Shown one piece after another: positions 35,680 to 64,000 of a stretch of 64,000 nucleotides of DNA; the stretch's first letter is position 1; the number at the start of each line of letters is the position of its first letter. The DNA comes from Eubacteriales bacterium. Lineage in GTDB: Bacteria; Bacillota; Clostridia; Oscillospirales; CAG-382. The DNA lies in contig JAZKZH010000001.1 of NCBI GenBank assembly GCA_045612545.1, forward strand, positions 54,513 through 118,512. The letters are read 5' to 3'. Under the pieces are notes generated by a model. That model worked only from the letters and a program-made list of their open reading frames with translations, was not told the origin of the DNA and made no database searches. Made by a program: the position numbers and the translations under genes.

Positions 35680-35693
35680 GATTGAACAAGTAC

Positions 35694-35723: not shown

Positions 35724-35730
35724 CAGATAT

Positions 35731-37062: not shown

Positions 37063-37063
37063 T

Positions 37064-40933: not shown

Positions 40934-40963
40934 GTTTCGATAACAAGCAGTTGGAGATTTGGA

Positions 40964-45577: not shown

Positions 45578-46468
45578 ATGAGGAAAATTACTTTTTTGAT
45601 TTTACTTGTTGCATTTATTGCATTATGTCTTTGCCTTGCAAGTTGCAACGACGATACAAATAGCAATGACCCTAACACAAGTTACATCATAGCTTCTGAC
45701 CCAGTGGAAAGCTATGATAATGTTTCGATATATTTTCCAGATAACGATAGGTCTGATGAAGAAGAAACTGTATCTACCGAAGGAAGCGAAGAAGAACCAA
45801 GCGAAATCAACGGATTCATTATCAAAGAAAAGAAATTCGATTTTGGGAGCAACAACGTTGTTCTCTTGAACGTGGAAAACAAGACGGCCCAAGACTACAC
45901 GCTGACTGTGAATGGAACGTATTTTGATCAAAATGGCAACGTGTTGAAGACCGACATACAATCGTTCGAGGATTTTGTTGCAGGCTATCAGGGGTATTTT
46001 CTGTTCAATCCGGAAATAGCATTCGACACTTTTAGCTTTACACTATCGTATAACTACTTTTCAGGCAAGCCTAGACTTTCAAATGTAAAACTTTTACAGT
46101 GGAATAAAGAGACTGCATTTTTCATGGTGTGGCAAGAACAATTGATTGAACTGGCAGGAATTGATGACACAATTTACAATACACTTTCTACAAATTACAA
46201 ATTTATTAATGAAAATGATGTTACCTTGCACATCAAGCGAGTTATGATTGCAATCGACAGCAACGATGAAATCATTTCCATTAAGCCGTTTGGATATGAG
46301 AAAGTAGCTCCTCGCGCATTTGGCGGAGGTACATTCCGGTTGTACCATACTTTGGATCCATTGACAAAAGATTCTCAAACTTGGCCTAAACACCTGCAGG
46401 GAGAAATTCAGTTAATCATGATACCAGTGGATGCCTTAACAGAAGAGGAGTATTCAGAATTGTCCTAA
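45578..46468 (+). CDS. Lipoprotein of unknown function
   Basis: Signal peptide plus lipobox LCLASC. 296 aa. Confidence 0.6.
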   Translation: MRKITFLILLVAFIALCLCLASCNDDTNSNDPNTSYIIASDPVESYDNVSIYFPDNDRSDEEETVSTEGSEEEPSEINGFIIKEKKFDFGSNNVVLLNVENKTAQDYTLTVNGTYFDQNGNVLKTDIQSFEDFVAGYQGYFLFNPEIAFDTFSFTLSYNYFSGKPRLSNVKLLQWNKETAFFMVWQEQLIELAGIDDTIYNTLSTNYKFINENDVTLHIKRVMIAIDSNDEIISIKPFGYEKVAPRAFGGGTFRLYHTLDPLTKDSQTWPKHLQGEIQLIMIPVDALTEEEYSELS

Positions 46469-46519: not shown

Positions 46520-46762
46520 ATGAAAAGAACAATCAAACTTATCAACTCTGAACGTTCCACCCCTTACGTAAACTCTAAAAAAGCAACCGTCTGCGAAGAA
46601 GGATCTTACGATTACTGCGTTTACATTGACGAGGCCAATTGCACAGGACTTTCGTATGATGTGTGCAACAAAGACAATGCCGCTTGTTACGAAGCAGGAT
46701 ACGATTACTGCACCAACTATAGAGATACCGATGCTTGCGGGGCATCTCGCGACTATAACTAA
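46520..46762 (+). CDS. Small Cys/Asp/Tyr-rich peptide (80 aa) with a regular Cx7C spacing; candidate RiPP precursor
   Basis: AAGGAG RBS. A hydrophilic 24-aa N-terminus without signal peptide is followed by seven Cys mostly 8 residues apart (C25, 33, 41, 49, 56, 64, 73), each followed by Asp within 3-6 residues. Confidence 0.55.
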   Translation: MKRTIKLINSERSTPYVNSKKATVCEEGSYDYCVYIDEANCTGLSYDVCNKDNAACYEAGYDYCTNYRDTDACGASRDYN

Positions 46763-49117: not shown

Positions 49118-49459
49118 ATGTTCAATAAAGTAGAATAGAACGAGATCAAAAGCACAGCGTACTCGAAGTATCGAGGCCAATATCACATCGTCTTTGCACC
49201 GAAACACAGACGTAACGACAAATTCATGGGATATCTCAAGAGGAGAAGATCTTTAATGATTTTCGTTCGACACGCAAATTTGAAACACAAGTATGGATCG
49301 AGGCATTTTTGGTGCAGAGGATACTATGTCGATACGGTAGGCAGAAACCAGAAAGTGATCGCAGAATGCGTCCGAAATCAACTTAAGGAAGATAACGCTT
49401 CGGATCAGATCAGTTTCAAGGAATTCACAGACCCATTTACGGTCGCCAAGAATAAATAG
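49118..49459 (+). pseudogene. tnpA: IS200/IS605-family tnpA (Y1 transposase) relic
   Basis: MFNKVE*…YHIVFAPKHRR…FMGYLKRRRSLMIFVRHANLKHKYGSRHFWCRGYYVDTVGRN. It has an in-frame TAG at codon 7, and the central ~50 aa (with the HUH motif) is missing. A TGTGTAA…TTACACA hairpin lies upstream. Confidence 0.75.
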
Positions 49460-50007
49460 GCAAAAAGGCAACTACACGTGAGCGGCTGCCTATGAGGTAA
49501 TGCAATGTCAAACTTCAGTGGTCCTTTTTAAGGGCGAAGCCTGTATTAACCCCTTATAGAGACTGTGCAAGTCACTGATTCAACCGGTGGTCTTGACTTG
49601 TCGGAGTGAAAGGATTTGAACCTTCAACTTCCACTCCTGAACTGTAAAAGCCTTGTACAACAGGTGCTTTTGAGTGATCTCCGGTGCTTTTCGGGCTAAA
49701 ATCACTGCTTTTGTGTGCTCTTGCTCTCGGGGTTTCCACATAGTCCAAGCCTGTAGATGGTCAAAGGTGTAGTCAGCATCGATTTTACGAGATTACTCGA
49801 ATCGTCCCAAAAAGCATCCCACCGTTTCTTCTGTTGTCGGTACAGCATACTTATACTCCAATTGCAAGGTCCACTCATAAAAACGAAAAATTACATCGCA
49901 GAAAATAAAGAAAAGACCTTGAGAAAAAAGTTGAATTTGTTGCGAAACAGATCTGAACTTTCTCGCCCTTCTGTGGTATTGTTATATGCTGACAAAAGCT
50001 GCAACCC

Positions 50008-50274
50008 ATGAAAAGTATTATAATGGGATTTTTGCGAGGAAACATTATACCGCTCGAGGGCGGAAGACCGAATGCTCACGAGGTGCAACAGCTGTTGGAG
50101 TACATCAGCAGACACAATGATGACCTGCAGAAGATCATGACCGATGAACAGGAGAAGACCTTCGAAAAGTTCCACGATTGCTGGAGTAAACATGCAAGCC
50201 TCTTAGATGAGGCATAGTTCGAACATGCGTTTAGACTCGGTATGCAGATTGCAATTGAAGTTCTATCACAGTGA
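50008..50274 (+). pseudogene. Small helical-protein gene interrupted by an in-frame TAG
   Basis: …DEQEKTFEKFHDCWSKHASLLDEA*FEHAFRLGMQIAIEVLSQ. Homology to the 43147 and 56465 copies continues in frame across the stop at 50215-50217. Confidence 0.45.
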
Positions 50275-50364
50275 GAAATAGGAACAAACAACATCGTGTT
50301 TCAATGGCAAGTAGAACTATTGCAAATCATTTACATATATTTGTCGTAAATTATGCATAACCGC

Positions 50365-50393
50365 CTGGCAAGTTTTCCCGAGCAAAGTATAAT
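50365..50393 (+). promoter_or_regulatory. Putative promoter of the A+T-rich operon
   Basis: CTGGCA (50365-50370), 17 nt, TATAAT (50388-50393). Confidence 0.45.
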
Positions 50394-50429
50394 TACGATG
50401 TCGAATTATAAGTAAATTAAGGAGATATT

Positions 50430-50540
50430 ATGGATTTTAACTATTTTCCCACGAAAGAAGCTGCCAAAACGCTTTCGTTGCCGAGTTATATGTCAAATGA
50501 TTTGCAAAGAAGTCAAGCTCGAGGGCGCAATTTAGTTTAG
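50430..50540 (+). CDS. 36-aa ORF with a strong RBS at the head of the rSAM operon (precursor-peptide or small-HTH candidate)
   Basis: AAGGAGATATT-ATG. MDFNYFPTKEAAKTLSLPSYMSNDLQRSQARGRNLV. No terminator before the rSAM gene. Confidence 0.3.
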   Translation: MDFNYFPTKEAAKTLSLPSYMSNDLQRSQARGRNLV

Positions 50541-50608
50541 CAAAGCGTTTGACTGGCGCCTCAAAAACTTGTCTCAGATATGATAGATAAACCAAAGGAA
50601 AGATAAAT

Positions 50609-51760
50609 ATGCCTCATTGTAACAAAAAAATGCTTTTTTTTTTTCTTACAACACGTTGCAATTTATGTTGTAGATATTGCTATAACGCTAAAGAACGAAA
50701 TGCTATAGAGGAAAAAACTATTCCTCTTGAGATCGCTTATGCAGCTATTGATCGGTATTTTAAAACAAACGATAGCCGCCACATCCGTTTTTACGGACCC
50801 GGTGAACCCACCCAAGAGTTTAAAAAAATGAAGCAGATCACCGAATACGCCAAGAGCCATCAAAACGGTGGCGAGCGTGTTACTGTTGAAATTCAGACCA
50901 ACGGTGTGTTTACAGAGGAAGTTCGCAACTGGGTTCTGGAGAACATGAATATCGTTTGGATGTCTTTCGACGGAATGAAGGACGTTCAAAATTACAACAG
51001 ACCGCTGAATCCCAAATATAATTCTGTTTTCGGCGGTAGAACTTCTGCTGATGTGTTAGAAGAGAACGTACGTTGGCTTAATGCAAATAAGGGTGAACGA
51101 AACTTGATGGTCGGCGCTCGCGTAACGATAACCGATAAAAACATCACCAAACAACACGAAATGGTAGATTATTTTTATAACTTGGGCATTCGTTATGTAT
51201 GGACTAACCCTTTGTTTTATTCTGTTGGTAAAATTCCTGTATGCGATGATGAAGCGAAACAACGAAACTACAGTTTTGATATGGATGCATACATAGAGAA
51301 TTATCTTGATGCCTATCATTACGCAAAGGAAAAAGGTGTATTCTGGGGCAGTTTCCTTACTATTAATTTTGATGGAGAGTCTGCATATCATTGCCGTTGT
51401 TGTACACCGCAAAACGCACCTCACATTACACCGGACGGATATATTTCCGCTTGTGATATGGTGGTCTTGGGTTTGGAAGCTTACCACATGGGCTTATTTA
51501 TTGTTGGTAAGTGGAACGAGAACGAAAAGGAGTTTGAGTTTTACGAAGATAAAATCAAGGCATTGAATGATAGAAAATCTACTCTCATGAAGCATTGCCA
51601 GAAATGTCCTGCACAGCTTCACTGCGGAGGATATTGTCTTGGCGAAACGGTAAATGAAACCGGTAGACTAGATGGACAAAATGTTGTTAAATGTGCTGCG
51701 GTGAAAAAACTTTATAAGGCACTTGGTGATAGCCCGGCATATCCGTACTTGCATCCGTAA
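50609..51760 (+). CDS. Radical SAM / SPASM-domain enzyme (no N-terminal peptide-recognition extension)
   Basis: CNLCCRYC (CxxxCxxC) at residues 17-24. C-terminal Cys clusters CRCCTPQNAPHITPDGYISAC and CQKCPAQLHCGGYC. Confidence 0.85.
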   Translation: MPHCNKKMLFFFLTTRCNLCCRYCYNAKERNAIEEKTIPLEIAYAAIDRYFKTNDSRHIRFYGPGEPTQEFKKMKQITEYAKSHQNGGERVTVEIQTNGVFTEEVRNWVLENMNIVWMSFDGMKDVQNYNRPLNPKYNSVFGGRTSADVLEENVRWLNANKGERNLMVGARVTITDKNITKQHEMVDYFYNLGIRYVWTNPLFYSVGKIPVCDDEAKQRNYSFDMDAYIENYLDAYHYAKEKGVFWGSFLTINFDGESAYHCRCCTPQNAPHITPDGYISACDMVVLGLEAYHMGLFIVGKWNENEKEFEFYEDKIKALNDRKSTLMKHCQKCPAQLHCGGYCLGETVNETGRLDGQNVVKCAAVKKLYKALGDSPAYPYLHP

Positions 51761-51796
51761 GTGTGCATATGTTGCTTATAATAGAGGAGAATTTTT

Positions 51797-52930
51797 ATGG
51801 AAAAATTTATTAGAGAATTTCTTGATTTGGTAGATAATGGCTCGGAAAAAGAAAGGGATGATTATTTAACAAATTTGGGAAAAGAGCAGTTGTACGATAT
51901 TATTAAGTATGCTATAGATAATAAATCGTTAGCATGGAAAAACAGAATGTTACTGCAAATGGTACAATATTCTCCCTTTTCATTTTGGGCGTGTGATGAT
52001 CAATATGTCATCAAACTTTGGGAAGCTGCGAGTACTGAAATCTATGGCGATGATTATTTGGGAAAGGAGTTCTGGCGTTTTGTTGAGAAAAAAGAACGCG
52101 AAAAAGCTCTTCGCGATTGTTTGACAATTATTTCCAAAAAGGGTGGACGTGTGAAAGCATTCGATAATTATTATGCCATAGAGGAAGATAATATTGGTAT
52201 TATAACTCAAAGCATTTCAATATACGATGATATAAATGATGAGTATTTGCAAGGCGAGATTGGATTGCATATAAATCTATCCAGCGTTCAAAAAAAACAT
52301 GAGGATATAATTTCCGAAAGAAATATTGCTGTAAAACGATTTGAAGCTGATTGTGATGCTTTACTTGCCGAATTTCGCGAGTATAGAGAAGAAATTTACC
52401 GAAAAATAAAAGAACATGCAAAAATCTCTGAAAGAGCAAAATTAAGAGATGAGTGTTGTAAGACGGTTGACTTTTTTTGCAAGCAACTTAATGAATTGCG
52501 CATAAATGCAACAGTATTGGAACAGTCTAATTTGGATAGTCTTCGAAATCAATTTTATTCTGCTATGGAAGAAATTGAAGATCAGATAAATCAAGAAAAA
52601 GTATGTGTGCTTGCTGATACTTCCATTAAACAATCGCGAAATAAAGCGATTACGATAGCATATGCAAAGCTAGAAGAAGTCAAGAATTGTGTAAAAACAG
52701 AAGCAGATCGCTTGCATCAATTGATGAAAATAAGCGAAAACAATAGGGCAGAGTTGAGCGATCGGTTAAACGCAATTCATATCTCTCAAGCCGATTTTGA
52801 AAATCATATTAACGAGATAATTGATAGTCTTAAGGTAGCTCCCACAATAGCTACGGTAAATGCCCTTAGTAATGATGTGGAAAATATAGCACGAAAGACA
52901 TTAGCAGAAATACGAGGATATGAAATATGA
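51797..52930 (+). CDS. PAS-like domain protein with a long C-terminal coiled coil
   Basis: 377 aa. Residues ~55-155 look PAS-like (FSFWACDDQYVIKLWEAAST…), and the remainder is heptad-rich helical sequence. Confidence 0.5.
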   Translation: MEKFIREFLDLVDNGSEKERDDYLTNLGKEQLYDIIKYAIDNKSLAWKNRMLLQMVQYSPFSFWACDDQYVIKLWEAASTEIYGDDYLGKEFWRFVEKKEREKALRDCLTIISKKGGRVKAFDNYYAIEEDNIGIITQSISIYDDINDEYLQGEIGLHINLSSVQKKHEDIISERNIAVKRFEADCDALLAEFREYREEIYRKIKEHAKISERAKLRDECCKTVDFFCKQLNELRINATVLEQSNLDSLRNQFYSAMEEIEDQINQEKVCVLADTSIKQSRNKAITIAYAKLEEVKNCVKTEADRLHQLMKISENNRAELSDRLNAIHISQADFENHINEIIDSLKVAPTIATVNALSNDVENIARKTLAEIRGYEI

Positions 52931-53319
52931 AGTTGTTTAAGTTGAATCATGAATATTATACATTTATAAGTGGTGCAATAATTTCCATTGCAATCTCGCT
53001 TATGTTTGAAGCTGTGAAAAACTCAGACTTATTACCTTTGTTACTTTGCCTTTCTTCAATGCTTTTGATGCTTTTTTCAAGCGTATTGTGCTTTGTTCTA
53101 TCCATTCGAGTTAAAATAACACAAGAAACTTTTATAAAAAACTTAGAGGTTCAAGAGGCTCTGCGTTATAACGATCCCAAAGCGGCCTGGAATGATACGG
53201 TTTTCGCAGGAGAAGGGAGACTTAATCACAATGGTAAGATTCTTTTAACATTATTTATTACTACCATGTTAACATGTGTTGGGAGTTTAGTATTATATTT
53301 ATTTTCAATAATTATGTAA
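52927..53319 (+). CDS. Small integral membrane protein
   Basis: 130 aa with three hydrophobic helices. Its start overlaps the upstream stop (ATGA). Confidence 0.5.
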   Translation: MKLFKLNHEYYTFISGAIISIAISLMFEAVKNSDLLPLLLCLSSMLLMLFSSVLCFVLSIRVKITQETFIKNLEVQEALRYNDPKAAWNDTVFAGEGRLNHNGKILLTLFITTMLTCVGSLVLYLFSIIM

Positions 53320-53344
53320 TTTTTTTACTAGGAGGATAAAAAAA

Positions 53345-54094
53345 ATGAAAAATCGTAAAGTTTACCTTGTTACCGGCGGTGCTGGAGGAATCGGTTCTGC
53401 AATTTGTCTTAAAATAGCAGAGATGGACAAAAACTCTCTTGTTTTGATTCATTACAATACATCACATTCAAGTGCTGTCAAGATTAAGAATAAGATTATT
53501 CAAGATGGAGGGGCTGCAGAGATCATTCAAAGTGATTTGGAGAGCAAGAGTGAGGTAGAGCTTTTTGCAAAGTCAATTTTAGAAAAATATTCCAAAGTGG
53601 ATTGTCTTATAAATTGTGCCGGTTATGTTCGTGATTGCAATGTGATCGATCGCGAATATGAAGATTTTGAAAAAACATTCCGTATTAATCTGTTTGCGCC
53701 GTTCCTGCTTTCTAAGATTCTGGGCTTTGAAATGGTGAAAAACCAATCGGGACAAATTATTAATATTTCGAGTACAAATGGTGTGAATACCATTTATCCG
53801 ACAAGTATAGATTATGATGCGAGCAAAGCTGCTTTAAATAGTCTTACCAGAAATCTTGCCATAGAATTGGCACCATATGTTAATGTAAATGCGGTTATGC
53901 CAGGGTGGGTTGGAACGCCTATGAATAATGAATTGCCTGAAGATTTTTTGGAAGAAGAGAAAAAGACCACGTTGCTTGAACGTTTTGCTGAACCAGAAGA
54001 GATAGCAGATATGGTGTTTTTCCTCTCGAGCGATAAGGCAAGATATATTACCGCTGCTATAATTCCCGTAGATGGCGGACTCAAAGTAAGATAA
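53345..54094 (+). CDS. Short-chain dehydrogenase/reductase (FabG-like)
   Basis: TGGAGGIGSAI cofactor motif, NISS…YDASKAAL catalytic motif, and PGWVGTPM. Confidence 0.9.
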   Translation: MKNRKVYLVTGGAGGIGSAICLKIAEMDKNSLVLIHYNTSHSSAVKIKNKIIQDGGAAEIIQSDLESKSEVELFAKSILEKYSKVDCLINCAGYVRDCNVIDREYEDFEKTFRINLFAPFLLSKILGFEMVKNQSGQIINISSTNGVNTIYPTSIDYDASKAALNSLTRNLAIELAPYVNVNAVMPGWVGTPMNNELPEDFLEEEKKTTLLERFAEPEEIADMVFFLSSDKARYITAAIIPVDGGLKVR

Positions 54095-54111
54095 GGAAAT
54101 GGTGTTTTTGA

Positions 54112-55218
54112 ATGGGTAGATTGTTTGGCTCCCCGAGCACAGATGGATATCATTCAGTTGGAGAAGATCAAAGACATCTTGCTACCGTTATTATGTACCC
54201 TGAGCGATGTGACATTTGGCGAAATGAGGCAAAATATGCACAAGATTTGATAATTCAAATTGCAAATACAATTATTGAATTTGAGCCTGTTTTAATGTGC
54301 GTTAAGCCGCATATGGTAGAACAAGTTAGACCTAGATTGGATTCACATATCAAGATTTTTGCGGTAGAATATGATGATATATGGGCACGCGATATTGGTC
54401 CTAATTTTGTTGTAAAGGATGGCAATTTGAGAGCTGTTAACTGGCAGTTTAATGCTTGGGGAGGACTCGAAGATGGCGCATATTATCCGTGGAATAATGA
54501 CGACGCTTTTGCGATTAGATTATCTGACTATTTAGGGATAGATTATTATAATGTTGAAGATGTTGTTTTAGAGGGTGGTGGTGTAATCATTGATAGTGCC
54601 GGTACGCTTATTACAACTGAGTCTGTATTGTTAAATAAAAATCGTAATCCTCACAAAAGCAAATCATATATTGAAACATGCCTAAAACAGTACTATAATG
54701 CAGATAAAGTAATTTGGTTACCGCAAGGACTTGAGTTGGACGAAACAAATGGACACATTGACAATGTTTGTGCCTTTGTTGGTGATGGAGAGGTAAGCAT
54801 TGCTTATACAGAAGATAAAAATAACATTCAGTATAATGTTTTGCAAACATCATATAGGATTTTGAGTCAAGAAACCGATGCAAATGGAAACCAATTAATC
54901 ATTCATAAACTGCCATTACCTACATCACAATTTATTACCAAAGAAGAAAGTGCCGGGATTTTGCAAACGAGTTCTTCAACGAACAGAGTAGAGGGCTTCG
55001 AATTGGTTCCGTCATATCTTAATTACTATTTAATTAATGGTGGTGTTCTTGTACCTTCTTTTGGTTGTGATGCAGATGATAAAATCAAGATGGAAATGTC
55101 AAAAATATTTCCGAACAGAGAAGTTATTCTTATTCCGTCAAAAGAAATACTTATAGGGGGTGGCGGTTTTCACTGCATTATGCATGAAATACCGCATGCG
55201 AATAATATTAAATGGTAA
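54112..55218 (+). CDS. Agmatine deiminase / peptidyl-arginine deiminase (PAD_porph) family enzyme
   Basis: WARDIGPNFV, NAWGG, LEGGG, NGHIDN and a C-terminal GGGGFHCIMHE (catalytic Cys region). Confidence 0.8.
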   Translation: MGRLFGSPSTDGYHSVGEDQRHLATVIMYPERCDIWRNEAKYAQDLIIQIANTIIEFEPVLMCVKPHMVEQVRPRLDSHIKIFAVEYDDIWARDIGPNFVVKDGNLRAVNWQFNAWGGLEDGAYYPWNNDDAFAIRLSDYLGIDYYNVEDVVLEGGGVIIDSAGTLITTESVLLNKNRNPHKSKSYIETCLKQYYNADKVIWLPQGLELDETNGHIDNVCAFVGDGEVSIAYTEDKNNIQYNVLQTSYRILSQETDANGNQLIIHKLPLPTSQFITKEESAGILQTSSSTNRVEGFELVPSYLNYYLINGGVLVPSFGCDADDKIKMEMSKIFPNREVILIPSKEILIGGGGFHCIMHEIPHANNIKW

Positions 55219-56114
55219 AGTCGATTATTTCAAATAAATTAGAGGTTCGGAGCAATAGTGATATAAACAATGTTGGAACGTTTGTCAATGAGCAGTTATC
55301 ACAAGACTCGCTTGTATTTATAAAAGGTGGGCATATATTGACAAGAGATCAAATGTATTCTCTTAATAAAATCGATTCATATTGGCCGATTGATGATAAT
55401 TATGTTTTAGCTGCCAAAAACAAAGAAGAATTTTCTCTTGTAAAACTTTATATCAATCACTCTTGCTCTCCTAATTGTGGAATACGCGGTGATATTGTTG
55501 GTGTAGCTATGAGAGATATTTCAGTTGGAGAAGAGATTACTTTCGATTATGCCTTTTTAGACAACGAAGACAATCGCTTTAAATGTACTTGCGGCAGTCC
55601 GAATTGCAGACATATTGTAACGGGTTTTGACTGGCAAATTAAAGAATTACAAAAAACATATCCGGAGTATTTTATCACATACTTGAAAGAGAAAATAAAA
55701 TCGGATTTTTACTACAAGGCTTTTACAGAATCGAATGCTGAAATAGATCTCTTGTGTCAAGAGGTTTTGAGAAATGATACATCCATTTCTTTTAACGAAA
55801 AAGATTGCCTTCATTGTTGTCTGTATTCTAAAGAACAATTAGTAGCATATGCAAGAGTGAAGTTTTGGCAGAATGAAGCACAAATTGATTGCGTTGTGGT
55901 TCGTCAAAGTGAGAGAACAAAGGGCCATGGAAGACAAATAGTATTTTGGGCAGAAACAGAAGCACTTAAGAAGGATATATCCAATGTGAATATATACACA
56001 CCAAAGCAAGGAGTAGATTTTTATAGCAAACTTGGTTATGTGCTTGGCGATAAAACGTCTCCACAAAAAACTTCGGCAAATGTACTGATGAAGAAAAAAT
56101 TAGCACTTGATTGA
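55212..56114 (+). CDS. SET-domain methyltransferase fused to a GNAT acetyltransferase domain
   Basis: SET core INHSCSPNC…EEITFDYAF…FKCTCGSPNCRHIV, then VVVRQSERTKGHGRQIV…FYSKLGY (GNAT acetyl-CoA motif). Confidence 0.7.
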   Translation: MVKSIISNKLEVRSNSDINNVGTFVNEQLSQDSLVFIKGGHILTRDQMYSLNKIDSYWPIDDNYVLAAKNKEEFSLVKLYINHSCSPNCGIRGDIVGVAMRDISVGEEITFDYAFLDNEDNRFKCTCGSPNCRHIVTGFDWQIKELQKTYPEYFITYLKEKIKSDFYYKAFTESNAEIDLLCQEVLRNDTSISFNEKDCLHCCLYSKEQLVAYARVKFWQNEAQIDCVVVRQSERTKGHGRQIVFWAETEALKKDISNVNIYTPKQGVDFYSKLGYVLGDKTSPQKTSANVLMKKKLALD

Positions 56115-56464
56115 TGGCTGTTATTATCGGGATAAGTAATCTTTAATAATTTGATAACTCTCTTCCTCACCACTGGATATTTACGAAAAAGTGTGGTACA
56201 TTGTGTGGTACCACAAGCCAAGGGGGAAACATACATGACCAAGATTACGATTTAAGAATTGTGCTATACGCTGTAATGAGCGAAGTGTTCTAACCGATGT
56301 TCCTCGCATCGCCCAACAAAGAAGGTATGGATGACCAGACAGCTTGGATCTTGAAATTGTCCGCCAGACCTTAATCGCAGCAGAAAAAATGAAAACGAAC
56401 GGTGATAGTATTGCCGAGGAAGAGTTCGGGAATGCAGTCATCGTTTCTATATACGGAAGTTCTA

Positions 56465-56748
56465 ATGAAAACGCTTGGAGAGCTATGGTACGGAAATATC
56501 TCGCCCTTCGAATAATGCACGCGTGGCGATAAGCGGCTCAAGGAAGTACTTTCGCAATGGCGCGTAACCGAGCCGATCTTGAAAAAACACTAAAAAAAGC
56601 AGAAAGAAACGCTTGGAAAGTTCGAGGACTGCATGACTGAGAAGCACAGCATCACCGAGTGCGAGGCATTCGCCTACGATTCCGCTTAGATGTGCAGCTG
56701 ACGACAGAAGACTTCCTTCAGTCGATGGGAGAGGATGAAAACTTATAG
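56465..56748 (+). pseudogene. Decayed copy of the small helical-protein gene (two stops and a frameshift)
   Basis: MKTLGELWYGNISPFE*CTRGDKRLKEVLSQWRVTEPILKKH*KKQKETLGKFEDCMTEKHSITECEAFAY…, then FRLDVQLTTEDFL in another frame. Confidence 0.45.
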
Positions 56749-57152
56749 GAGCCAAAAAGTCATATCCTATATAACTCGTAAAAATGGGGGGCTGTATAAT
56801 GAATCCCCATAAAAAAGTCTCCCCCCCCCTAAAACCACATTTGCTTTTTACCAATACGTTTCTGGAATCTACATACTCTGTTGTAGTTCTATGATCATTA
56901 TTTTGCCACATCCTACGCCTTCATATAAGCACCTATGAATAAGTTTATTAACTCATTTCACTATACGACTATGTTTACATCGCAACAAATCGATAACAAT
57001 TTTATGTGTTCATTCTCGCTTTGTTATAATCAAACACATACGAACTTGAAGACAACTATCGCACACAAATCCTTGCCATTTAATTACAACTATACCCACG
57101 GAACCACACTAACACGAAGGGGGCGAAATATGCAACGAACAAGAAAGGCCAA

Positions 57153-57181
57153 TTGACACGCTTTTGTCGGGAAGTTAATAT
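57153..57181 (+). promoter_or_regulatory. Promoter of the ligase-ACP-rSAM cluster
   Basis: TTGACA (57153-57158), 17 nt, TAATAT (57176-57181). Confidence 0.5.
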
Positions 57182-57239
57182 ATTTTTGAGGCACGAATAT
57201 AGTGTCTCTTTTATTTTTGAGTATAATAGGGAGCTTCAA

Positions 57240-58709
57240 ATGAAAATTGCAGATCGTTTAAAAGAAAAGCAGTACTGCAAGAATGTGGCAGTAGTAGATG
57301 GTACCGTTCAGCTGACATACCAAGACTTGCACAAAAAAGCCTCCACCCTCTCCCAGGTGCTCGCATTTGTATCCAACCGGCGGGAGCACGTGGCAATACT
57401 CCTCCCCAATTCAGCCAACTATGTTGTCGCATACTGTTCTGTTTTGCTGGCCGGAGATGTAGTTGTTCCAATCTACTTCAAGGCAACCGGCGAAGAGATT
57501 AAAAACTCCGTTGAATATTGCGACACAAACATTCTAATCACCGACACCGAAAACTTTGACCGTGTTGAGAATATAGCATTCGATCATCAAGTTGTGGTTA
57601 TCAACATTGATACACTCTCAATGATCGGTTTAGGCAAATGTGGAATCCGTGCCAACCCTCAAAGCCCTCCTCACGTGGCCGTCATGTTAGGAACCTCCGG
57701 AAGCACCAGCACCCCCAAAAGAGTCATGCTTTCCGATGAGAACCTGATTGAAAATGCCGTTGGAATCATTCACTCGTTGCAGTACACCCAGGATGAGCGC
57801 TTCCTGTGTCTTTTGCCGATGACGTTTGCTTCCGGCAATACTTCTCAGCTGGTCGTTTCTCTTTTGCTGACTTCAACCCTGTATATTTATCACGGCCCGT
57901 TGCACCCTAAATTCATTTTCGACTGCATTAAATGCAACCACATCACCAGCACCACGATTGTCCCTTCGGTTCTGAAAGTGCTGTTTTCCGATGGAAAAGA
58001 CTATTCAAGCGAGTGCCCCTCATTGAAAACTATCTGCTTCGGCGGCGGACCAACAGATGACCTTACCATCAGTAAAATTGTAAACAGCCCCATGCGAGAT
58101 AAATTCGTTCAGATGTATGGGCAGACAGAAGCTTCCACAAGAATATCTCATTTGAACTATAGCAAAGACCACGACAAACCCACTTCTGCAGGAAAACCTC
58201 TTTTCAATGTGCAAGTTGCAGTGAAACGGAAGGACAACGTGGAATTCGAAAACGATCTTGTTCCGGGCGAAATTTTAGTCAAAGGTCCAAATGTTATGGT
58301 GGGGTATTACAAGGAAACCAACTCCCCTATTATCAACGGATGGCTGGCTACAGGTGACGTAGGCTATATTGCTCCCGGCGACTACATCTATATTACAGGA
58401 CGAAAAAAGAACATCATTATTTGTTCCGGCATGAACATTCAAGCAGAAGAGGTAGAAAACATTCTTCTGCAACACCCCGGTGTTTCCGAAGCGTTGGTAT
58501 TTGGAATCGATGACTTTGCCCATGGTGAATTGCCGTGTGCGGAAGTCGTTCTTAAGCAAGAGGCAACTGTAGGAGAAAAAGAGTTGAAAGCTTTTTGCGC
58601 CCGGCATCTCTCTGATTATAAAATCCCGGCGCATATTAAGTTCGTAGAAAAACTCGAGCGCACATACAACGGCAAAATTGCCAGAAAAAAGGAGACAAAA
58701 CATGAGTGA
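57240..58709 (+). CDS. Acyl-AMP/CoA ligase (AMP-dependent synthetase family)
   Basis: ATG 57240 follows AGGGAG. MLGTSGSTSTPKRVMLS, YGQTE, TGDVGY and a GRKKN motif. Confidence 0.9.
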   Translation: MKIADRLKEKQYCKNVAVVDGTVQLTYQDLHKKASTLSQVLAFVSNRREHVAILLPNSANYVVAYCSVLLAGDVVVPIYFKATGEEIKNSVEYCDTNILITDTENFDRVENIAFDHQVVVINIDTLSMIGLGKCGIRANPQSPPHVAVMLGTSGSTSTPKRVMLSDENLIENAVGIIHSLQYTQDERFLCLLPMTFASGNTSQLVVSLLLTSTLYIYHGPLHPKFIFDCIKCNHITSTTIVPSVLKVLFSDGKDYSSECPSLKTICFGGGPTDDLTISKIVNSPMRDKFVQMYGQTEASTRISHLNYSKDHDKPTSAGKPLFNVQVAVKRKDNVEFENDLVPGEILVKGPNVMVGYYKETNSPIINGWLATGDVGYIAPGDYIYITGRKKNIIICSGMNIQAEEVENILLQHPGVSEALVFGIDDFAHGELPCAEVVLKQEATVGEKELKAFCARHLSDYKIPAHIKFVEKLERTYNGKIARKKETKHE

Positions 58710-58941
58710 CATCTATCAAACAATTATCGCACAGAACGCCAAGATCAAGATTGCCCCTTCCGAAATCAAGCCCGAAATGCTTCTTACGGAAGATTTGGGA
58801 TTTGACTCTATTGGGTTTGTCACAATGATCGTGGAACTGGAAAATGCATATAACTTCTCCTTCGATCCCGAATTTATTGACCCCGAAAAACTGAAAGCAG
58901 TAAAAGACGTTATTGAGTATGTCAAGAGTATGCTGAAGTAA
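58702..58941 (+). CDS. Acyl carrier protein
   Basis: 79 aa with an LGFDSIGFVTMIVELE phosphopantetheine site. Overlaps the ligase stop by 8 nt. Confidence 0.85.
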   Translation: MSDIYQTIIAQNAKIKIAPSEIKPEMLLTEDLGFDSIGFVTMIVELENAYNFSFDPEFIDPEKLKAVKDVIEYVKSMLK

Positions 58942-58958
58942 CCATTCAGGAGTACGTC

Positions 58959-60215
58959 ATGGATAAATTCAATTCACGCCTTCAACGAGTTTTGGAGACG
59001 GCGTATAATGAAGTCCCCTATTTCAACAATTTGATCAACGACTACATCGAATCTACCGATGAGTTAAAACCGGAATTGATACATAAGCTTCCCGTTTTTA
59101 ACAAACGAACGATTCTTGACATCGGTTGGGAGAACTTTGTTTCGGGAAACTATCTGAACGAGAACTACGAGTTGCGCCTTAGAGGAAAAGCACGTCTCGA
59201 ACGCACCTCCGGGACCACCGGAAATCCAATGAAGATTCTTTGGAACAACAGCGACTTCTTTTCTTCCAATATGAATCATTGGAAATACCGCAGCAAGAAT
59301 TTCAACATCACGCCTAATTCCCGTATGTGTACGTCTTCGAAAACGATTCCGGGAGACGATGTCTTTTACATTGATCCTCGCAGCAATAAAATGACATTCA
59401 GTATTCGGGAACTCAATCAAGATACTGTAAAACGTATTCTTGAAAAAATGAACGAATTCCAACCTGAGTGGCTATACCTCCAGAACAGTATTTTGTTCGT
59501 GTTGGTCTATTTTGCGAGACAGAACGGTTGGGACTTCCCCTCGTCGATTCGATACATCGAATATATCGGGGAGCCGCTGTGCGACTACTACCGCAAAGAA
59601 ATCGCTAAGATGATTCCCGCACCATCCTCCAACATGTACGGCTGTGTGGAAACCAACGGCATTTCATACGAATGCAACGCTGGTAAAAATCACTTGCTCC
59701 CCGATAACGTCATGGTAGAAATCGTCGATAAGGACGGCAACCCTCTCCCGGATGGAGAAACGGGATACGTTTGCGTTACCGGATTGCATAACACGGCAAT
59801 GCCGATGTTAAAATATCGGTTAAATGATTTGGCAAGTATCCACAGTAATCAAGTATGCGCTTGCGGCAATCCAAATCCCACGATCGACATCAAGGCAGGA
59901 AGAATGACTGAATTTATCATTCTTGACGATCCCTCTGTGTATCACGAAGCAGCCCTGTATTGTCCAATCAATTCTGGGCTATCGATTTCCGTACCCAGCC
60001 AAGACGATATCTTGTTCAACATCAAGCTGAATGCTCTTGATGACTATGAAATTCAAGTGTATCAACAGCCAAGTAAAGATATCAATATCCAGAAGCTTTT
60101 AGGCGAACTCTTCCGAGCTTACAGCCTGCCAAATGTCAGATTCACTGTAACCTATAGCGCTTCGGTAGATCATTCCAAGCCCTCCGGACTCCTGAGAATG
60201 CGAGGTGCGAAATGA
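58959..60215 (+). CDS. PaaK/CapK/F390-synthetase-like adenylate-forming enzyme
   Basis: ERTSGTTGNPMKILW P-loop-like motif; ~420 aa, typical for the phenylacetate-CoA ligase superfamily. Confidence 0.7.
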   Translation: MDKFNSRLQRVLETAYNEVPYFNNLINDYIESTDELKPELIHKLPVFNKRTILDIGWENFVSGNYLNENYELRLRGKARLERTSGTTGNPMKILWNNSDFFSSNMNHWKYRSKNFNITPNSRMCTSSKTIPGDDVFYIDPRSNKMTFSIRELNQDTVKRILEKMNEFQPEWLYLQNSILFVLVYFARQNGWDFPSSIRYIEYIGEPLCDYYRKEIAKMIPAPSSNMYGCVETNGISYECNAGKNHLLPDNVMVEIVDKDGNPLPDGETGYVCVTGLHNTAMPMLKYRLNDLASIHSNQVCACGNPNPTIDIKAGRMTEFIILDDPSVYHEAALYCPINSGLSISVPSQDDILFNIKLNALDDYEIQVYQQPSKDINIQKLLGELFRAYSLPNVRFTVTYSASVDHSKPSGLLRMRGAK

Positions 60216-60877
60216 TCACTTGGATTTTGCTCGTACTTCAATTGCTCTGCACTGCGTTAAACTTCTTCTTTGCCAAGACAAAGTTACAGAGGAAGCTCCT
60301 TCTCGCCGTCAGTTACGGCGTTTTAATTGCTTGGTTGATTCATCACGGGTATCAAGACTTCATATCCTTTAATGTGTGGCTTTTGCCCATCAGCCTTGCG
60401 GCCTCTTATTTGGTGTATCTGCTTTCCCTATTCATCGTCGGAACAAAATTTAATGCAGATAACTTGCTGTTGAAAAAAACGTTCCATTTTCGTGGAAAAA
60501 GAAAACACGCCTTTGCGCGTGAAAGTCTGCGAAATCTTTACTCCGCAACCTACGAAGAATTGATCTACCGATGGTTCCTGCAAAATGCATTGTATGAGGC
60601 GACACACAGTGCGATCTTATCCATTCTGATTACCATCGCTGTATTCTTCGCAGTACATTTGAACAGGAAGATCGCCATCGTACAAAAGATCGATATTTTC
60701 ACCTTTTCGGTTTTTATCACCGTATTTTACTTTTGGACGATCAACCCCATCTACTGTATCATAATCCATATTTTGCGGAACCAATTGATCATTTGTCAAA
60801 AGCATGTTGCAGCACAAATCCAAGATGAAAAAATGAGAAACTATATGAAGCTTTTAAAAGAAAGGACTGTAAAATGA
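60212..60877 (+). CDS. CPBP-family intramembrane glutamic protease (CAAX/Abi-like)
   Basis: YEELIYRWF (EExxxR), FFAVHL (FxxxH) and IIHILRN (HxxxN) set in a polytopic membrane protein. Confidence 0.75.
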   Translation: MITWILLVLQLLCTALNFFFAKTKLQRKLLLAVSYGVLIAWLIHHGYQDFISFNVWLLPISLAASYLVYLLSLFIVGTKFNADNLLLKKTFHFRGKRKHAFARESLRNLYSATYEELIYRWFLQNALYEATHSAILSILITIAVFFAVHLNRKIAIVQKIDIFTFSVFITVFYFWTINPIYCIIIHILRNQLIICQKHVAAQIQDEKMRNYMKLLKERTVK

Positions 60878-62301
60878 CACTCACTGCTAAAAAATGCTAC
60901 CTTAACGAAACGCACCTGTTCGAAAAGAACGGCGTGTGCTTCGTATTCTTCCCACAAAACCTCTTGTTGTTCGAAGTTGACGAAAACACCTATGCAAACA
61001 TCAAGGAGCTAAAAGAAAAATACGGCACAACAACATCCTTTATGAGCGATGACGAAGGACTGTTGGAGGCCGGTATCATTTATGAAGCCGAGGAACCCCG
61101 TGGCGATCTCTACAAACAGGGCTACGAGGAATACATGAAGGATCACCCAGAGGATAAGATCCCCCCTATTACCAATGCTGTGCTTCAAATCGCCAACGAC
61201 TGTAATCTTAACTGTATCTACTGCTACGGTGACGGCGGGTCTTACGGACGTGAACGTGAACTGATGACCATGGACACCGCAAAGAAAGCTGTCGATCTCA
61301 TGGTAGCTAACAGCGAAGGCATTAATGAGTTGACCGTGATTTTCTTCGGTGGGGAGCCATTGATCAACTTTGACGTAGTAAAGGGCACCTTGGAGTACTG
61401 CAAGAGCATTGAAGAAGCCTGCGGCAAAACCTTCCGTTACAGCATGACCACCAACGGCACCATTATGAACGATGAGATCTACGATTTCATCAAAGATAAC
61501 AAAGTGTCCGTAATGATCAGCATGGACGGCGGAAAGGAACTGCAGAACAAACATCGTTGCTATTGCGACGGCAAGGGTAGTTTTGAAGATATTCAGAAAA
61601 ATATTGAACGCTTCAAAGAAGCGCGTGGCGGATTCTTGACCGCACGTGCTACCGTTTGCAGTACGGATATCCGTTTCAAAAAGATCAGAGACGATCTGCT
61701 TGCTCTAGGCTTTACCAATGCGGTAACCTCTATGGTAGATACAGCAGAAGACTCTCCCCTGTTCATCGGCGGCGACTACACACAGCGCGTGCTGGAGCAG
61801 TACGAGATCCTCGCGGAGGATTTCATCGAAGCTGTCATCAATAACAAGAAGCAGCTGAACAATATTTTCTCTGAAAAATTGAATCGTCTGTACTTTAAGA
61901 AGCTGAAGATCCGCTCCTGCAACGCCGGCTACGGTGGAATCGCAATCGGTACGGATGGCAATATCTACCCTTGCCATAGATTTATGGGTATGCCCGAGTA
62001 CATCATCGGCAACCTTGAAAACGGTATCGATGAGGTAGCCCGTAGCGGTTACAGAGAAGCTACTATCTATACAAAAGAGGAGTGCAAAACCTGCTGGGCA
62101 AGATATCTCTGCAGCGGCGCTTGCGCACATACGTCTGCAGTCCACGGTGGTGATGTGTTCCATGCTCCCACTTGCTATTGCGATATTTATAAAGGACTCG
62201 ATGAACTTACGCTTTATGCATATTGGAAGTTAAAAGAGTGGGATGAGGATATTTTGAGAAACAGGCTGGAAAAAGCGGATAAACAGATAAGCACATTGTA
62301 A
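60874..62301 (+). CDS. Radical SAM / SPASM peptide-maturase-like enzyme with an N-terminal extension
   Basis: CNLNCIYC at ~residue 110 after a ~100-aa N-terminal domain. SPASM clusters CNAGYGGIAIGTDGNIYPC and CKTCWARYLCSGACAH…CYC. Confidence 0.88.
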   Translation: MTLTAKKCYLNETHLFEKNGVCFVFFPQNLLLFEVDENTYANIKELKEKYGTTTSFMSDDEGLLEAGIIYEAEEPRGDLYKQGYEEYMKDHPEDKIPPITNAVLQIANDCNLNCIYCYGDGGSYGRERELMTMDTAKKAVDLMVANSEGINELTVIFFGGEPLINFDVVKGTLEYCKSIEEACGKTFRYSMTTNGTIMNDEIYDFIKDNKVSVMISMDGGKELQNKHRCYCDGKGSFEDIQKNIERFKEARGGFLTARATVCSTDIRFKKIRDDLLALGFTNAVTSMVDTAEDSPLFIGGDYTQRVLEQYEILAEDFIEAVINNKKQLNNIFSEKLNRLYFKKLKIRSCNAGYGGIAIGTDGNIYPCHRFMGMPEYIIGNLENGIDEVARSGYREATIYTKEECKTCWARYLCSGACAHTSAVHGGDVFHAPTCYCDIYKGLDELTLYAYWKLKEWDEDILRNRLEKADKQISTL

Positions 62302-62370
62302 AGTGTGTTTATTTCCTCTTTCTTTGCTTCCTGTGTTTGTTTCTTCCAGTACCTAATATAGGAGATTTGC

Positions 62371-63111
62371 ATGTTATTCTTACGTTCTTTATGGAAAAAC
62401 AAATATTATCTCGTGTTGGCGACGGTATTAATGGTGGTGGTCTCCCGGGTGTGGGTGGAATCGCCGTTGATTGCGGCGTTGCCGGAAAAGGGATTTATCG
62501 ACTACACGGAATTATTCGTACCGTTTTTGCTGATCCTGCCCATCTCGTTCTTGCTGTATGACAATTTTGAAATCGAGCTGGCGTTAACCTGCGGGGTGAA
62601 GACGGTGAAGCTCATGCTTTACAAATTCTTCTCAGTGATGATCTATACCCTGATCCCCATGGGGGCGTTGGTGGTGCTTTACAAGTACACGGAGTTTGTT
62701 CCCAACGGGCAGACGAAGATCCGGATTCCCATTGTGATCCCGGAGGATTACAAGGTTTATATGGCTATTTCGGCGTTTGTGACGGTTTTGTTCTTTGCAG
62801 CGTTGTTCCTGTTGGTGCGGGTGGCGACGAAGAACTGCTATGCGCCGGTGGGGTTGGGGATCTTGGTGTATACCATTTTCAACACGCTGAACACCAATAT
62901 TCATAGTGGGTATGAGGACATTCGCAAGTGTCTGTTTGACCCGTTCTTGTCCAACTATTTTCTGGGGGACGAGGTGCTGGTGAATTATTACAAGGTGGGA
63001 CCGCTTTGGACGTATAACAGGATCTTGTTCTTGGGGCTTGCGTTGGTGATGTTGGTTGTTACTTACATTTTGTTGAGAAGAGAAAAACTGCATCAAGGAT
63101 TTAATGATTGA
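62371..63111 (+). CDS. ABC-2-type transporter permease-like membrane protein
   Basis: 246 aa with ~6 TM helices, directly upstream of an ABC ATPase gene. Confidence 0.55.
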   Translation: MLFLRSLWKNKYYLVLATVLMVVVSRVWVESPLIAALPEKGFIDYTELFVPFLLILPISFLLYDNFEIELALTCGVKTVKLMLYKFFSVMIYTLIPMGALVVLYKYTEFVPNGQTKIRIPIVIPEDYKVYMAISAFVTVLFFAALFLLVRVATKNCYAPVGLGILVYTIFNTLNTNIHSGYEDIRKCLFDPFLSNYFLGDEVLVNYYKVGPLWTYNRILFLGLALVMLVVTYILLRREKLHQGFND

Positions 63112-63124
63112 GAGGAGTACATAC

Positions 63125-64000
63125 ATGAAAATCGAAATTAAAAACTTAACCAAGATCTACCCCCGAGGAAAGAAAAAAGCCCTGAACGGGGTGAACATCG
63201 AGATCGGGCAGGGTATTTTCGGGCTGATCGGGCGCAACGGCGCAGGCAAAACCACACTGATGCGGATCGTTGCGACCATCATGGACGCTACCGACGGCGA
63301 GATTTACTTTGACGGCAAGGAGCTGAAGGCGAACAAGGATGAGTTCCGGTCATCCCTTGGGTATCTTCCCCAGAGCACGAAATTGATGCCCAGAATGAAC
63401 ATTGTGGAGTTTTTGGACTACGTTTGTATTTTGAAGGGGATCAAGAACAAGGCGGAGAGGAAGGAGAGAATTGCTTCAGCCATTGAGACGGTTGGTTTGG
63501 TGGGCGAAGAAAAGAAGCGTTTGGGCAAGTATTCCGGCGGTATGTTGAGACGTGCGGGGATCGCGCAAGCGTTGATTGGTGACCCGAAGGTTCTGATCAT
63601 CGACGAACCAACTACGGGATTGGATCCGGAGGAAAGACTGTACTTCCTGAATTTGCTTTCCAAGATCGCTATGGAGAGAACCATTATTTTCTCCACCCAT
63701 ATCACGGCGGATATTGAGCATTTGTGCAACAACATCTGTGTTTTAGAGCAGGGCGAAGTAAAGTATCTCGGTGAGAAGAGCGAGTTTATTGATCGCATCA
63801 ACGGCAAGCTGTACGAGCATACCGGCTCCCAGTACGAGGAGGAGCAGTTGCGAAAAGACACCGTGGTCACCTCTGTGGCGTACGTGGACGGCAGACCGAG
63901 GGTCCGTTACGTGGCAGAATCCCCTCTGTTCGAAGGTTCCGTTCCCGTGGCTCCTACCCTTGAAGATTCGTATATTTACGCTCTGGGCGGTGTGAAGAGG
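63125..64000 (+). CDS. ABC transporter ATP-binding protein (3' end outside window)
   Basis: ATG 63125 follows GAGAGGAG. Walker A GRNGAGKTT, signature YSGGMLRR and Walker B LIIDEPT. The frame is open to the window end. Confidence 0.9.
   Translation, partial: MKIEIKNLTKIYPRGKKKALNGVNIEIGQGIFGLIGRNGAGKTTLMRIVATIMDATDGEIYFDGKELKANKDEFRSSLGYLPQSTKLMPRMNIVEFLDYVCILKGIKNKAERKERIASAIETVGLVGEEKKRLGKYSGGMLRRAGIAQALIGDPKVLIIDEPTTGLDPEERLYFLNLLSKIAMERTIIFSTHITADIEHLCNNICVLEQGEVKYLGEKSEFIDRINGKLYEHTGSQYEEEQLRKDTVVTSVAYVDGRPRVRYVAESPLFEGSVPVAPTLEDSYIYALGGVKR

Follow-up and report, generated by a model that had tools for sequence, protein, structure and literature searches.

Ranthipeptides are a young class of peptides that are made ribosomally and modified after translation (RiPPs), few members of which have been characterised. 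Two described systems, CteB/SCIFF (thermocellin) and PapB/freyrasin, combine a leader-bearing, Cys-rich precursor with a radical S-adenosylmethionine (rSAM) enzyme that has a twin-cluster SPASM domain and a domain of the RiPP recognition element (RRE) type. PapB makes thioethers between Cys and Asp or Glu (PMC9413430, PMC10739248). Other RiPPs are lipidated. In the goadvionins, acyl groups bound to an acyl carrier protein (ACP) are transferred to the peptide; lipolanthines, goadvionins and selidamides all contain lanthionine or avionin, and their characterised acylating enzymes are GNATs (PMC8784127). Here we analysed a stretch of 64,000 nucleotides from a Eubacteriales bacterium (contig JAZKZH010000001.1, positions 54,513 to 118,512; hereafter the window). 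Mapping of open reading frames (ORFs) and domain scans revealed seven tightly packed plus-strand genes at 57240-64000, which encode an acyl/aryl-AMP ligase, an ACP, a PaaK-family adenylate-forming enzyme, a CPBP protease, an rSAM/SPASM enzyme, a membrane protein and an ATP-binding cassette (ABC) ATPase (Table 1). We propose, with a probability of about 0.6, that these are the biosynthetic genes of a ranthipeptide-type RiPP island, the peptide of which would also receive an acyl or aryl group delivered by the carrier protein.

The rSAM enzyme was compared with solved structures and with named maturase families. The three cysteines of its CX3CX2C motif (C110, C114 and C117) and all seven SPASM cysteines (C349, C367, C404, C407, C413, C417 and C436), which would hold two auxiliary 4Fe-4S clusters, show no variation among 41 sequences, and the enzyme matched PF04055 at 70 bits and PF13186 at 28.4 bits (cutoff 21.5). 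Its best solved relative by sequence was CteB (5wgg), with an E value of 1e-64 compared to 2e-19 for anSME. An AlphaFold2 (AF2) model of the enzyme (pLDDT 91.4) aligned with CteB 5wgg over 472 columns including residues 1-100, whereas anSME aligned over only about 380 columns, those of the core. The enzyme scored high against the nif11, PapB, SCIFF and QhpD models, yet below the NCBIfam cutoffs of the PapB (281.6 bits, cutoff 340), SCIFF (274.1, 425), nif11 (283.8, 518.7), QhpD (261, 453) and CcpM (196.4, 500) models. Because it falls below every named-maturase equivalog cutoff, it represents a distinct subfamily. A first-pass annotation, made from the letters of the window, had read the enzyme as a peptide maturase with a leader-recognition domain, and this reading is borne out by the invariant SPASM cysteines and by CteB being the best match in sequence and in fold, the N-terminal domain included. 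Collectively, these results identify the enzyme as a CteB-like peptide maturase of the ranthipeptide lineage, in a subfamily of its own and with a leader-binding N-terminal domain.

To place the operon among its relatives, loci were traced from rSAM homologues and all ORFs in the fetched loci were compared by BLAST. The resulting synteny table contains eight intact cluster types, namely that of the window and L001, then L002, L004, L013, L024, L007, L009 and L011, with rSAM identities of 43-98%. L024 was the sole locus added by a metagenome scan, and a ninth type, L015, is decayed. In all eight intact types the PaaK-like, CPBP and rSAM genes lie side by side, mostly with overlaps, and the precursor gene stands after or before them. 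The ligase and ACP genes always occur together, relocated as a pair to a position after the exporter gene in L007 and L009. The pair is visible in seven of the eight intact types; the L024 contig starts at the ACP gene, with the ligase outside view. Eight independent intact cluster types share this gene set, which is more than chance would give. The ligase and ACP genes could have been unrelated neighbours, as the first-pass annotation had allowed; together with the PaaK-like gene (the trio) they instead proved to be conserved partners of the rSAM gene. In L015 (Oscillospiraceae metagenome-assembled genome (MAG) SIG666), a truncated rSAM gene (11888-12541, 217 aa) precedes unrelated genes, with the ligase, ACP, PaaK-like and CPBP genes still intact.

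The extent of the trio was examined at the family level. The PaaK-like clade comprises 68 clusters at an identity of at least 33%, followed by a sharp gap to generic PaaKs at 23-26%, and among species-representative genomes it occurs in four MAGs only (two from Oscillospiraceae, one from a Clostridia bacterium and one from a Bacillota bacterium). On the maturase side, P0068 is the most distant locus confirmed with the trio, 68 rSAM clusters rank no lower than it, and about 15 contigs are apparently common to the PaaK-like and rSAM cluster lists. Two out-group loci, L022 and L023 (rSAM identity 33-35%), have a similar precursor, CPBP protease, exporter and ABC ATPase but no ligase, ACP or PaaK-like gene. 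The boundary is not sharp in identity, as one 34%-identical rSAM enzyme apparently shares a contig with a PaaK-like cluster. The trio is thus an add-on in a subset of these clusters and is conserved there. The CPBP gene adjoins the rSAM gene in all loci, with overlap in most, including the trio-less L022 and L023, and the protease is a general partner of this rSAM lineage.

The first-pass annotation had seen no precursor gene with the operon and had mentioned a 'Cx7C' peptide gene at 46520 far upstream. Locally this is correct, in that a small-ORF check and tblastn found no family-like or Cys-rich ORF at 56.1-57.2 kb or at 62302-62370. A 73-aa ORF at 56935-57156 and other small ORFs in this gap were rejected as precursors; they are not Cys-rich and do not have the family leader motif. 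The gene at 46520-46762, however, encodes a bona fide member of the precursor family, which matched precursors from six loci at E values of 1e-13 to 1e-16 (tblastn) and is the sole family-like peptide in the window. The alignment has eleven invariant positions (K6, N9, E11, K21, C25, D31, C33, D37, D62, C64 and D69). Family leaders follow the consensus M..(K/R)..KL(I/V)N(N/D)E(R/K)...S.K(A/G), here called KLINNER-type, and lead into a Cys/Asp/Tyr-rich core. The precursors of the relatives are 64-93 aa long and lie beside the cluster in every locus traced from rSAM homologues, with one or two in every intact in-group and both out-group loci and three in the strain of L028 and L001. The family forms 111 clusters at 90% identity, all unnamed, and no Pfam or NCBIfam model matches it.

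The cores of 107 family members contain 7.1 Cys on average and consist of 15% Asp, 11% Cys, 10% Ala and 10% Tyr. In 92% of cases, a Cys has its closest upstream Asp at a distance of 1 or 3 residues. An Asp follows the last Cys in 106 of the 107 members and precedes the first Cys in just 23 of them. This pattern fits one Asp partner per Cys and is matched by the Cys-to-Asp/Glu linking activity of PapB. From this, and from the similarity of the maturase to PapB, CteB and QhpD, we infer that the product may carry Cys-to-Asp thioether rings. In PapA, too, Asp is partnered with Cys (PMC9413430). Unlike in the CteB and PapB systems, the cores of the window family are longer (about 55 aa with about 7 Cys) and Tyr-rich, and the CPBP, ligase, ACP and PaaK-like genes are fixed partners.

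We next considered what the trio might load. The ligase is a short, MenE-like ANL enzyme (best solved relative MenE 5buq, E 5e-55) and is presumed to load the ACP. All ten aligned ACPs retain the DS(I/L) serine. An AF2 model of the PaaK-like enzyme (pLDDT 92.2) gave BT_0428, PaaK1/2, ClxA, NatL2 and AjiA1 as top Foldseek matches (E about 1e-21). NatL2, ClxA and AjiA1 have the same two-domain fold at 17-22% identity; their substrates are small aromatic acids, which they adenylate and hand on to a nucleophile or carrier without CoA. The closest PaaK-family structures with a named substrate all act on small or aromatic acids. NCBIfam scores were 82 bits (cutoff 700) and 65 bits (cutoff 646), the PF14535 C-terminal-domain model does not detect members of the family, and the operon context of PaaK proper is absent, with no paa genes near the PaaK-like gene. 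The first-pass annotation had thought a fatty-acylated RiPP plausible. Because the ligase is short and MenE-like and the PaaK-family relatives act on small or aromatic acids, fatty acylation is no better supported than aryl or short-acyl modification, and its 'fatty' part finds no specific support.

The CPBP protein matched PF02517 at 42 bits (cutoff 22.4). Its motifs EExxxR, FxxxH and HxxRN (YEELIYR, FFAVH and HILRN in the window) are conserved in ten homologues from the in-group and the out-group. CPBP/Abi proteases are known from other peptide systems, where MroQ processes AgrD and Abi-type proteins confer bacteriocin immunity. As in those cases, an Rce1-like fold is encoded in a secreted-peptide locus; unlike them, the window gene is translationally coupled to an rSAM maturase. 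The protein is a candidate leader peptidase and/or immunity protein. Leader removal, immunity and export had been suggested earlier for this protease together with an ABC exporter. The ABC set in the window is an ABC-2-type ATPase and permease, which looks like immunity, and in relatives the exporter lies in the part of the cluster that would be beyond the window.

Like the clusters of lipidated RiPPs, the window cluster encodes acyl-activating and carrier-protein functions beside a ribosomal peptide. Unlike those clusters, which use polyketide or fatty acid synthases (PKS/FAS) and GNATs, it has an rSAM thioether peptide as its predicted scaffold, no PKS or FAS, and MenE-like and PaaK-family activators. 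The only GNAT is a SET-GNAT fusion (55212-56114) in a low-GC block upstream of the operon; it is also found in L001 and is absent from L002, L004, L013, L007, L009 and L011. Targeted full-text searching found no literature description of this architecture, nor of PaaK-like enzymes in a RiPP context.

A transferase could be provided by a BtrH_N-like protein. All-versus-all clustering and a family hidden Markov model detected BtrH_N-like proteins in six of nine cluster types (the eight intact types and the decayed L015). Their genes stand after the exporter gene in L001, L013 and L011, right after the ligase and ACP genes in L007, and twice in L009. Five of six aligned homologues match the BtrH_N domain at E values of at most 0.1 (best 4.5e-15), and a profile search of the family against PDB sequences returned only noise. 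The window protein (37974-39755), which matches the domain just at the Pfam cutoff, is a candidate ACP-dependent acyltransferase or C39-like peptidase. BtrH itself is an ACP-dependent acyltransferase that moves an ACP-bound unit to an amine in the butirosin side-chain pathway. In L009 (4031-7981; the same as L016), a Bacillota MAG, a BtrH_N protein, an Orn/DAP-type pyridoxal phosphate-dependent decarboxylase, an extra ACP and an ATP-grasp protein are encoded directly upstream of the PaaK-like, CPBP and rSAM genes, and this is the gene set of the butirosin side-chain pathway. The L009 precursor contains no Tyr, unlike most family members. Butirosin biosynthesis by BtrH, BtrI, BtrJ and BtrK and the proposed pathway share the logic of moving a carrier-tethered unit to an amine; the acceptor is an aminoglycoside in the former and would be a peptide here. 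Carrier-protein-to-peptide transfer is coherent as a hypothesis because of the recurrence of BtrH_N-like genes and the butirosin-type set in L009.

On this basis the pathway may be pictured as follows. An agr-type quorum signal and/or an extracytoplasmic function (ECF) sigma factor would switch on the operon. The rSAM enzyme would bind the KLINNER-type leader and, by PapB/QhpD-type chemistry, furnish the Asp/Cys/Tyr-rich core with about seven thioether rings from Cys to Asp. The MenE-like ligase would load a small or aromatic carboxylic acid onto holo-ACP, and the PaaK-family enzyme would provide a second ATP-dependent carboxylate activation. The carrier-bound unit would then move to the peptide, possibly by means of a BtrH_N-like transferase such as the one at 37974-39755. 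At the membrane, the CPBP protease might cut off the leader behind the conserved K-A/G that immediately precedes the first Cys, and a dedicated ABC exporter encoded beyond the window might secrete the product. The lipoprotein, the ABC-2 permeases and the ATPase could protect the producer. More tentatively, and somewhat short of an even chance, the system could be the first carrier-protein-dependent rSAM thioether-peptide hybrid. An acyl, aryl or aminoacyl unit would be built on the dedicated ACP by the MenE-like ligase (by the BtrJ/K-like set in L009) and attached to the poly-thioether, Asp/Tyr-rich peptide without a GNAT, through the PaaK-family enzyme and/or a BtrH-like transferase, with the CPBP protease processing the intermediate at the membrane.

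The window was also compared with its closest relative, L001, in which the rSAM enzyme is 98% identical and the operon and module proteins are 93-99% identical. L028 comes from the same sample as L001, ends in the gene in which L001 begins, and has a precursor identical to that of the window. DNA identity with L001 is 95.7% over 54895-62301 and 88.6% over 62359-64000 (L001 9661-11302); the drop lies at the rSAM/transporter junction and coincides with a rise of GC3, the G+C content at third codon positions, to about 0.68. The first-pass annotation had observed that the last two genes are richer in G+C and had taken the transporter for a possible later or host-derived addition. GC3 is indeed higher in these genes (0.69 and 0.67, compared to 0.50-0.57 for the ligase to rSAM genes), but a late host-derived origin was rejected, as both are conserved cluster members in all relatives. 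The change at the junction indicates a recombination breakpoint in a mosaic cluster rather than a foreign transporter.

Right after the rSAM stop codon, L001 has an extra segment of 2.2 kb (7423-9660) with a precursor, a lipoprotein and a permease gene, where the window has 57 unrelated bases. The L001 precursors are encoded at 7539-7799 and 11377-11658, the latter about 70 bp past the ABC ATPase gene and hence just past the end of the window. Look-ups of the exact sequences of the window's rSAM enzyme, 246-aa protein and ABC ATPase returned no record that would extend the window, and L001 served as a proxy for the region past 64000. Beyond its ATPase and precursor genes, L001 encodes an ABC exporter (ABC_membrane and ABC_tran, 601 aa), followed by a BtrH_N-like gene. 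The suggestion that the cluster continues beyond 64000 is supported by this homology, and a further precursor gene probably lies just past 64000, as in L001.

The truly foreign segment of the window by composition is the low-GC block at 49.2-56.1 kb. It contains an IS200 transposase fragment, a DUF6809 gene, a second rSAM/SPASM enzyme gene (50609-51760) without the N-terminal domain, ORFs of 377 and 130 aa, and genes for a FabG-like short-chain dehydrogenase/reductase, an agmatine deiminase (above its NCBIfam cutoff) and the SET-GNAT fusion. The block is present in the strain of L028 and L001 and absent from the L002, L004 and L013 clusters. At its left edge are the IS200/IS605 transposase fragment (49226-49459) and the intact DUF6809 gene (50008-50217); at its right edge is a frameshifted DUF6809 copy (56400-56700) in the 1-kb gap before the ligase gene. 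A search for repeats on either side of the block gave none that were convincing, and Rfam gave no match in the 56.1-57.2 kb gap.

Several points weigh against our proposal, which draws on sequence, synteny and predicted structures. Within the cores, the Asp-x-Cys and Asp-x3-Cys spacings are sharper than those from Cys to a downstream Asp, and the ring topology is ambiguous from sequence. The window precursor lies 10.5 kb from the operon with the foreign low-GC block in between, and the rSAM-adjacent precursor module is missing; because of this separation, coupling and expression in the window strain are less secure. Promoter-quality sites number 59 in 20 kb, compared to 46.9 +/- 6.2 in shuffled sequences, which is no significant enrichment. 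The putative catalytic Cys of the BtrH_N-like proteins is not conserved in L011 or L013, no BtrH_N-like gene occurs within 10 kb in L002, and no acyltransferase is universal across the loci. Finally, the trio-less relatives evidently make their peptide without the trio, which could serve immunity or a separate metabolite. The trio might then leave the peptide unmodified and act in self-protection, for example by a Dlt-like modification of an envelope polymer, or make a separate, co-regulated small molecule. The functioning of the out-group clusters and the want of a universal acyltransferase both suit this view, as does the resemblance of the ligase and ACP to stand-alone loading pairs, which in L007 and L009 lie beside exporter or immunity genes. 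We regard it as the main rival reading, though an unlikely one. The PaaK-like gene is translationally coupled to the CPBP and rSAM genes in the window and in most relatives, and its clade is found only with these clusters, in equal numbers. There is no MBOAT/DltB/DltD-type envelope transferase in any locus, and charge protection of the Dlt type makes little sense with so strongly anionic a peptide (15% Asp).

The window copy might also be decaying or silent, with its rSAM-adjacent precursor module deleted, its remaining precursor cut off by the low-GC block and no product formed in this strain. The 2.2-kb difference from L001 straight after the rSAM stop codon and the IS200 fragment and degenerate DUF6809 copy associated with the foreign block are in keeping with this, and the truncated rSAM gene of L015 reveals that such clusters do decay. 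The likelihood is nonetheless small, given that none of the seven operon genes and four module genes is shortened and their motifs are intact, that their proteins are 93-99% identical to those of L001, that a second sample (L028) has a precursor identical to the one at 46520, and that another precursor probably follows the ATPase gene. It is very improbable that the substrate of the rSAM enzyme is a small molecule tethered to the ACP, a reading that the first-pass annotation had considered, or that the enzyme is a maturase of a non-peptide kind (sulfatase or cofactor type). The ACP and rSAM genes do share one operon, and the anSME and QhpD families are among the NCBIfam and PDB matches, but CteB is far ahead of anSME and aligns over the leader-binding domain. 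The sulfatase-maturase or cofactor assignment was rejected on the CteB match and on this domain, which anSME lacks. An ACP-tethered substrate is unlikely given the cognate Cys-rich precursors, which accompany every rSAM homologue, also those without an ACP.

If the coupling of carrier-protein chemistry to a thioether peptide that we favour is real, hybrid RiPP chemistry would extend to rSAM thioether peptides and would include new peptide-acylating enzymes. About 68 clusters in uncultured gut Oscillospiraceae and Clostridia combine a carrier protein and two adenylate-forming enzymes with a CteB-like maturase, and the window offers a defined precursor-maturase pair (46520-46762 with 60874-62301). 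The cluster is probably under agr-type quorum sensing and near conjugation genes, and may thus matter for competition or signalling in gut communities. For genome mining, the locus cautions that a precursor gene can sit 10 kb away behind an insertion, which makes 'no precursor' calls from a local window unsafe. The coordinates of all features are listed in Table 1.

Table 1. Features of the RiPP island in the window, in order of position.
Feature	Coordinates	Strand	Basis or remark
Tyrosine recombinase	33410-34246		an HTH gene is also upstream of the cluster
agr-like quorum-sensing module	34925-37765	-	domain and family matches
AgrD-like peptide, 46 aa	34925-35065	-	closely resembles L002 3308-3448
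AgrB-like protein	35062-35679	-	family match
AgrC-type histidine kinase	35755-37062	-	domain/family match
LytTR response regulator	37064-37765	-	domain/family match
BtrH_N-like protein, 593 aa, weak polysaccharide-deacetylase-like N-terminal region	37974-39755	+	PF14399, 29.7 bits, exactly at cutoff
ECF-type sigma-70 factor	44547-45068	+	TIGR02937, 65.5 bits (cutoff 42.9); just upstream of precursor module
Lipoprotein, 296 aa, candidate immunity or accessory protein, paired with precursor	45578-46468	+	signal peptide and lipobox Cys
Precursor peptide, 80 aa	46520-46762	+	leader MKRTIKLINSER...KKA; core with 7 Cys, each with a nearby Asp
Second lipoprotein, 393 aa	46879-48060	+	homologue of L002 12696-13913 protein, same relative position
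ABC-2-like permease of precursor module, 288 aa	48072-48938	+	homologues in L001, L002 (two copies), L004, L013, L024
Low-GC intervening block, outside conserved core	49226-56114	+	GC3 0.27-0.38, compared to 0.50-0.69 in operon
Sigma-70-like promoter candidate, TTGACA-17-TAATAT	57153-57181	+	sequence match
Acyl/aryl-AMP ligase, ANL superfamily, 489 aa	57240-58709	+	PF00501 (AMP-binding), PF13193 (AMP-binding_C)
Acyl carrier protein, 79 aa	58702-58941	+	PF00550 (PP-binding); phosphopantetheine Ser in FDSIG
PaaK-family adenylate-forming enzyme, 418 aa	58959-60215	+	AMP-binding; PaaK/F390-type NCBIfam matches far below cutoffs
CPBP (Rce1-like) glutamic intramembrane protease, 221 aa	60212-60877	+	PF02517
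Radical SAM/SPASM peptide maturase, 475 aa, N-terminal RRE-type domain	60874-62301	+	Radical_SAM, Fer4_12, SPASM
Membrane protein, 246 aa, probable permease partner of ABC ATPase	62371-63111	+	position beside ATPase
ABC-2-type ATPase, 292 aa	63125-64000	+	PF00005 (ABC_tran)

The gene overlaps and junctions given in the first-pass annotation are all correct according to the ORF map. The ACP gene overlaps the ligase gene by 8 nt, and ATGA overlaps join the PaaK-like and CPBP genes (60212-60215) and the CPBP and rSAM genes (60874-60877). The true start of the ligase gene is the ATG at 57240, behind an AGGGAG ribosome-binding site; a longer, TTG-started ORF from 57153 is an artefact, 57153 being part of a -35 hexamer and no start codon. 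The promoter proposed earlier is present as a sequence, yet such sites are no rarer than chance predicts from the shuffles, and we regard it as plausible and statistically not significant. The ligase start codon is separated from the candidate promoter by a terminator-like hairpin with a T-run (57188-57208, +), which might act as an attenuator or as a leader element. Antisense ORFs on the minus strand at 61009-61554, 61705-62163 and 62632-63153, within the rSAM and transporter genes, appear 'conserved' across loci; they were rejected as genes and are shadow ORFs of conserved coding sequence.

The 246-aa membrane protein has no Pfam match, and its gene adjoins the ATPase gene also in L001, L002, L004, L013 and L024. 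Only the stop codon of the ATPase gene is outside the window, as judged from the L001 homologue (292 aa; L001 10427-11305), to which the protein is 97% identical. Its NCBIfam matches are of the GldA, DrrA and lantibiotic-protection types, all below cutoff. In the precursor module, neither the 296-aa nor the 393-aa lipoprotein has a Pfam match. Homologues of the former adjoin precursors in L001, L002 (two copies), L004, L013 and L024, and the L004 copy of the ABC-2-like permease has a weak ABC2_membrane_3 match. In L004 and L014 the lipoprotein-precursor-permease module directly abuts the ligase gene. Weak homologues of the ECF sigma factor are encoded upstream in L013 and L015.

The agr-like module is the probable regulator of the island. 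In L002 the same module lies directly upstream of the ligase gene, in divergent orientation, and the out-group cluster of L023 is likewise preceded by one. After the BtrH_N-like gene, in a stretch of higher GC (0.50-0.55), are two large plus-strand ORFs (384 and 637 aa; 39779-42877); neither has an NCBIfam match or a counterpart in the other loci, and the 637-aa ORF has no Pfam match. The RiPP island extends at least from 33.4 kb to beyond 64 kb and is probably carried on, or located beside, a conjugative element, as suggested by the tyrosine recombinase (33410-34246) together with genes for conjugation and adhesion. Conjugation genes are found at 13-22 kb, among them those for a VirB4/TraG-like ATPase (13206-15740) and a type IV coupling protein (19642-21738). 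At 24550-30846 a SpaA/thioester-domain surface protein of 2098 aa is encoded. The sole Rfam match in the window is a DUF3268 RNA at 31514-31634 (+), which scored 90 bits against a gathering threshold of 65.3 and lies upstream of two ORFs of about 180 aa.

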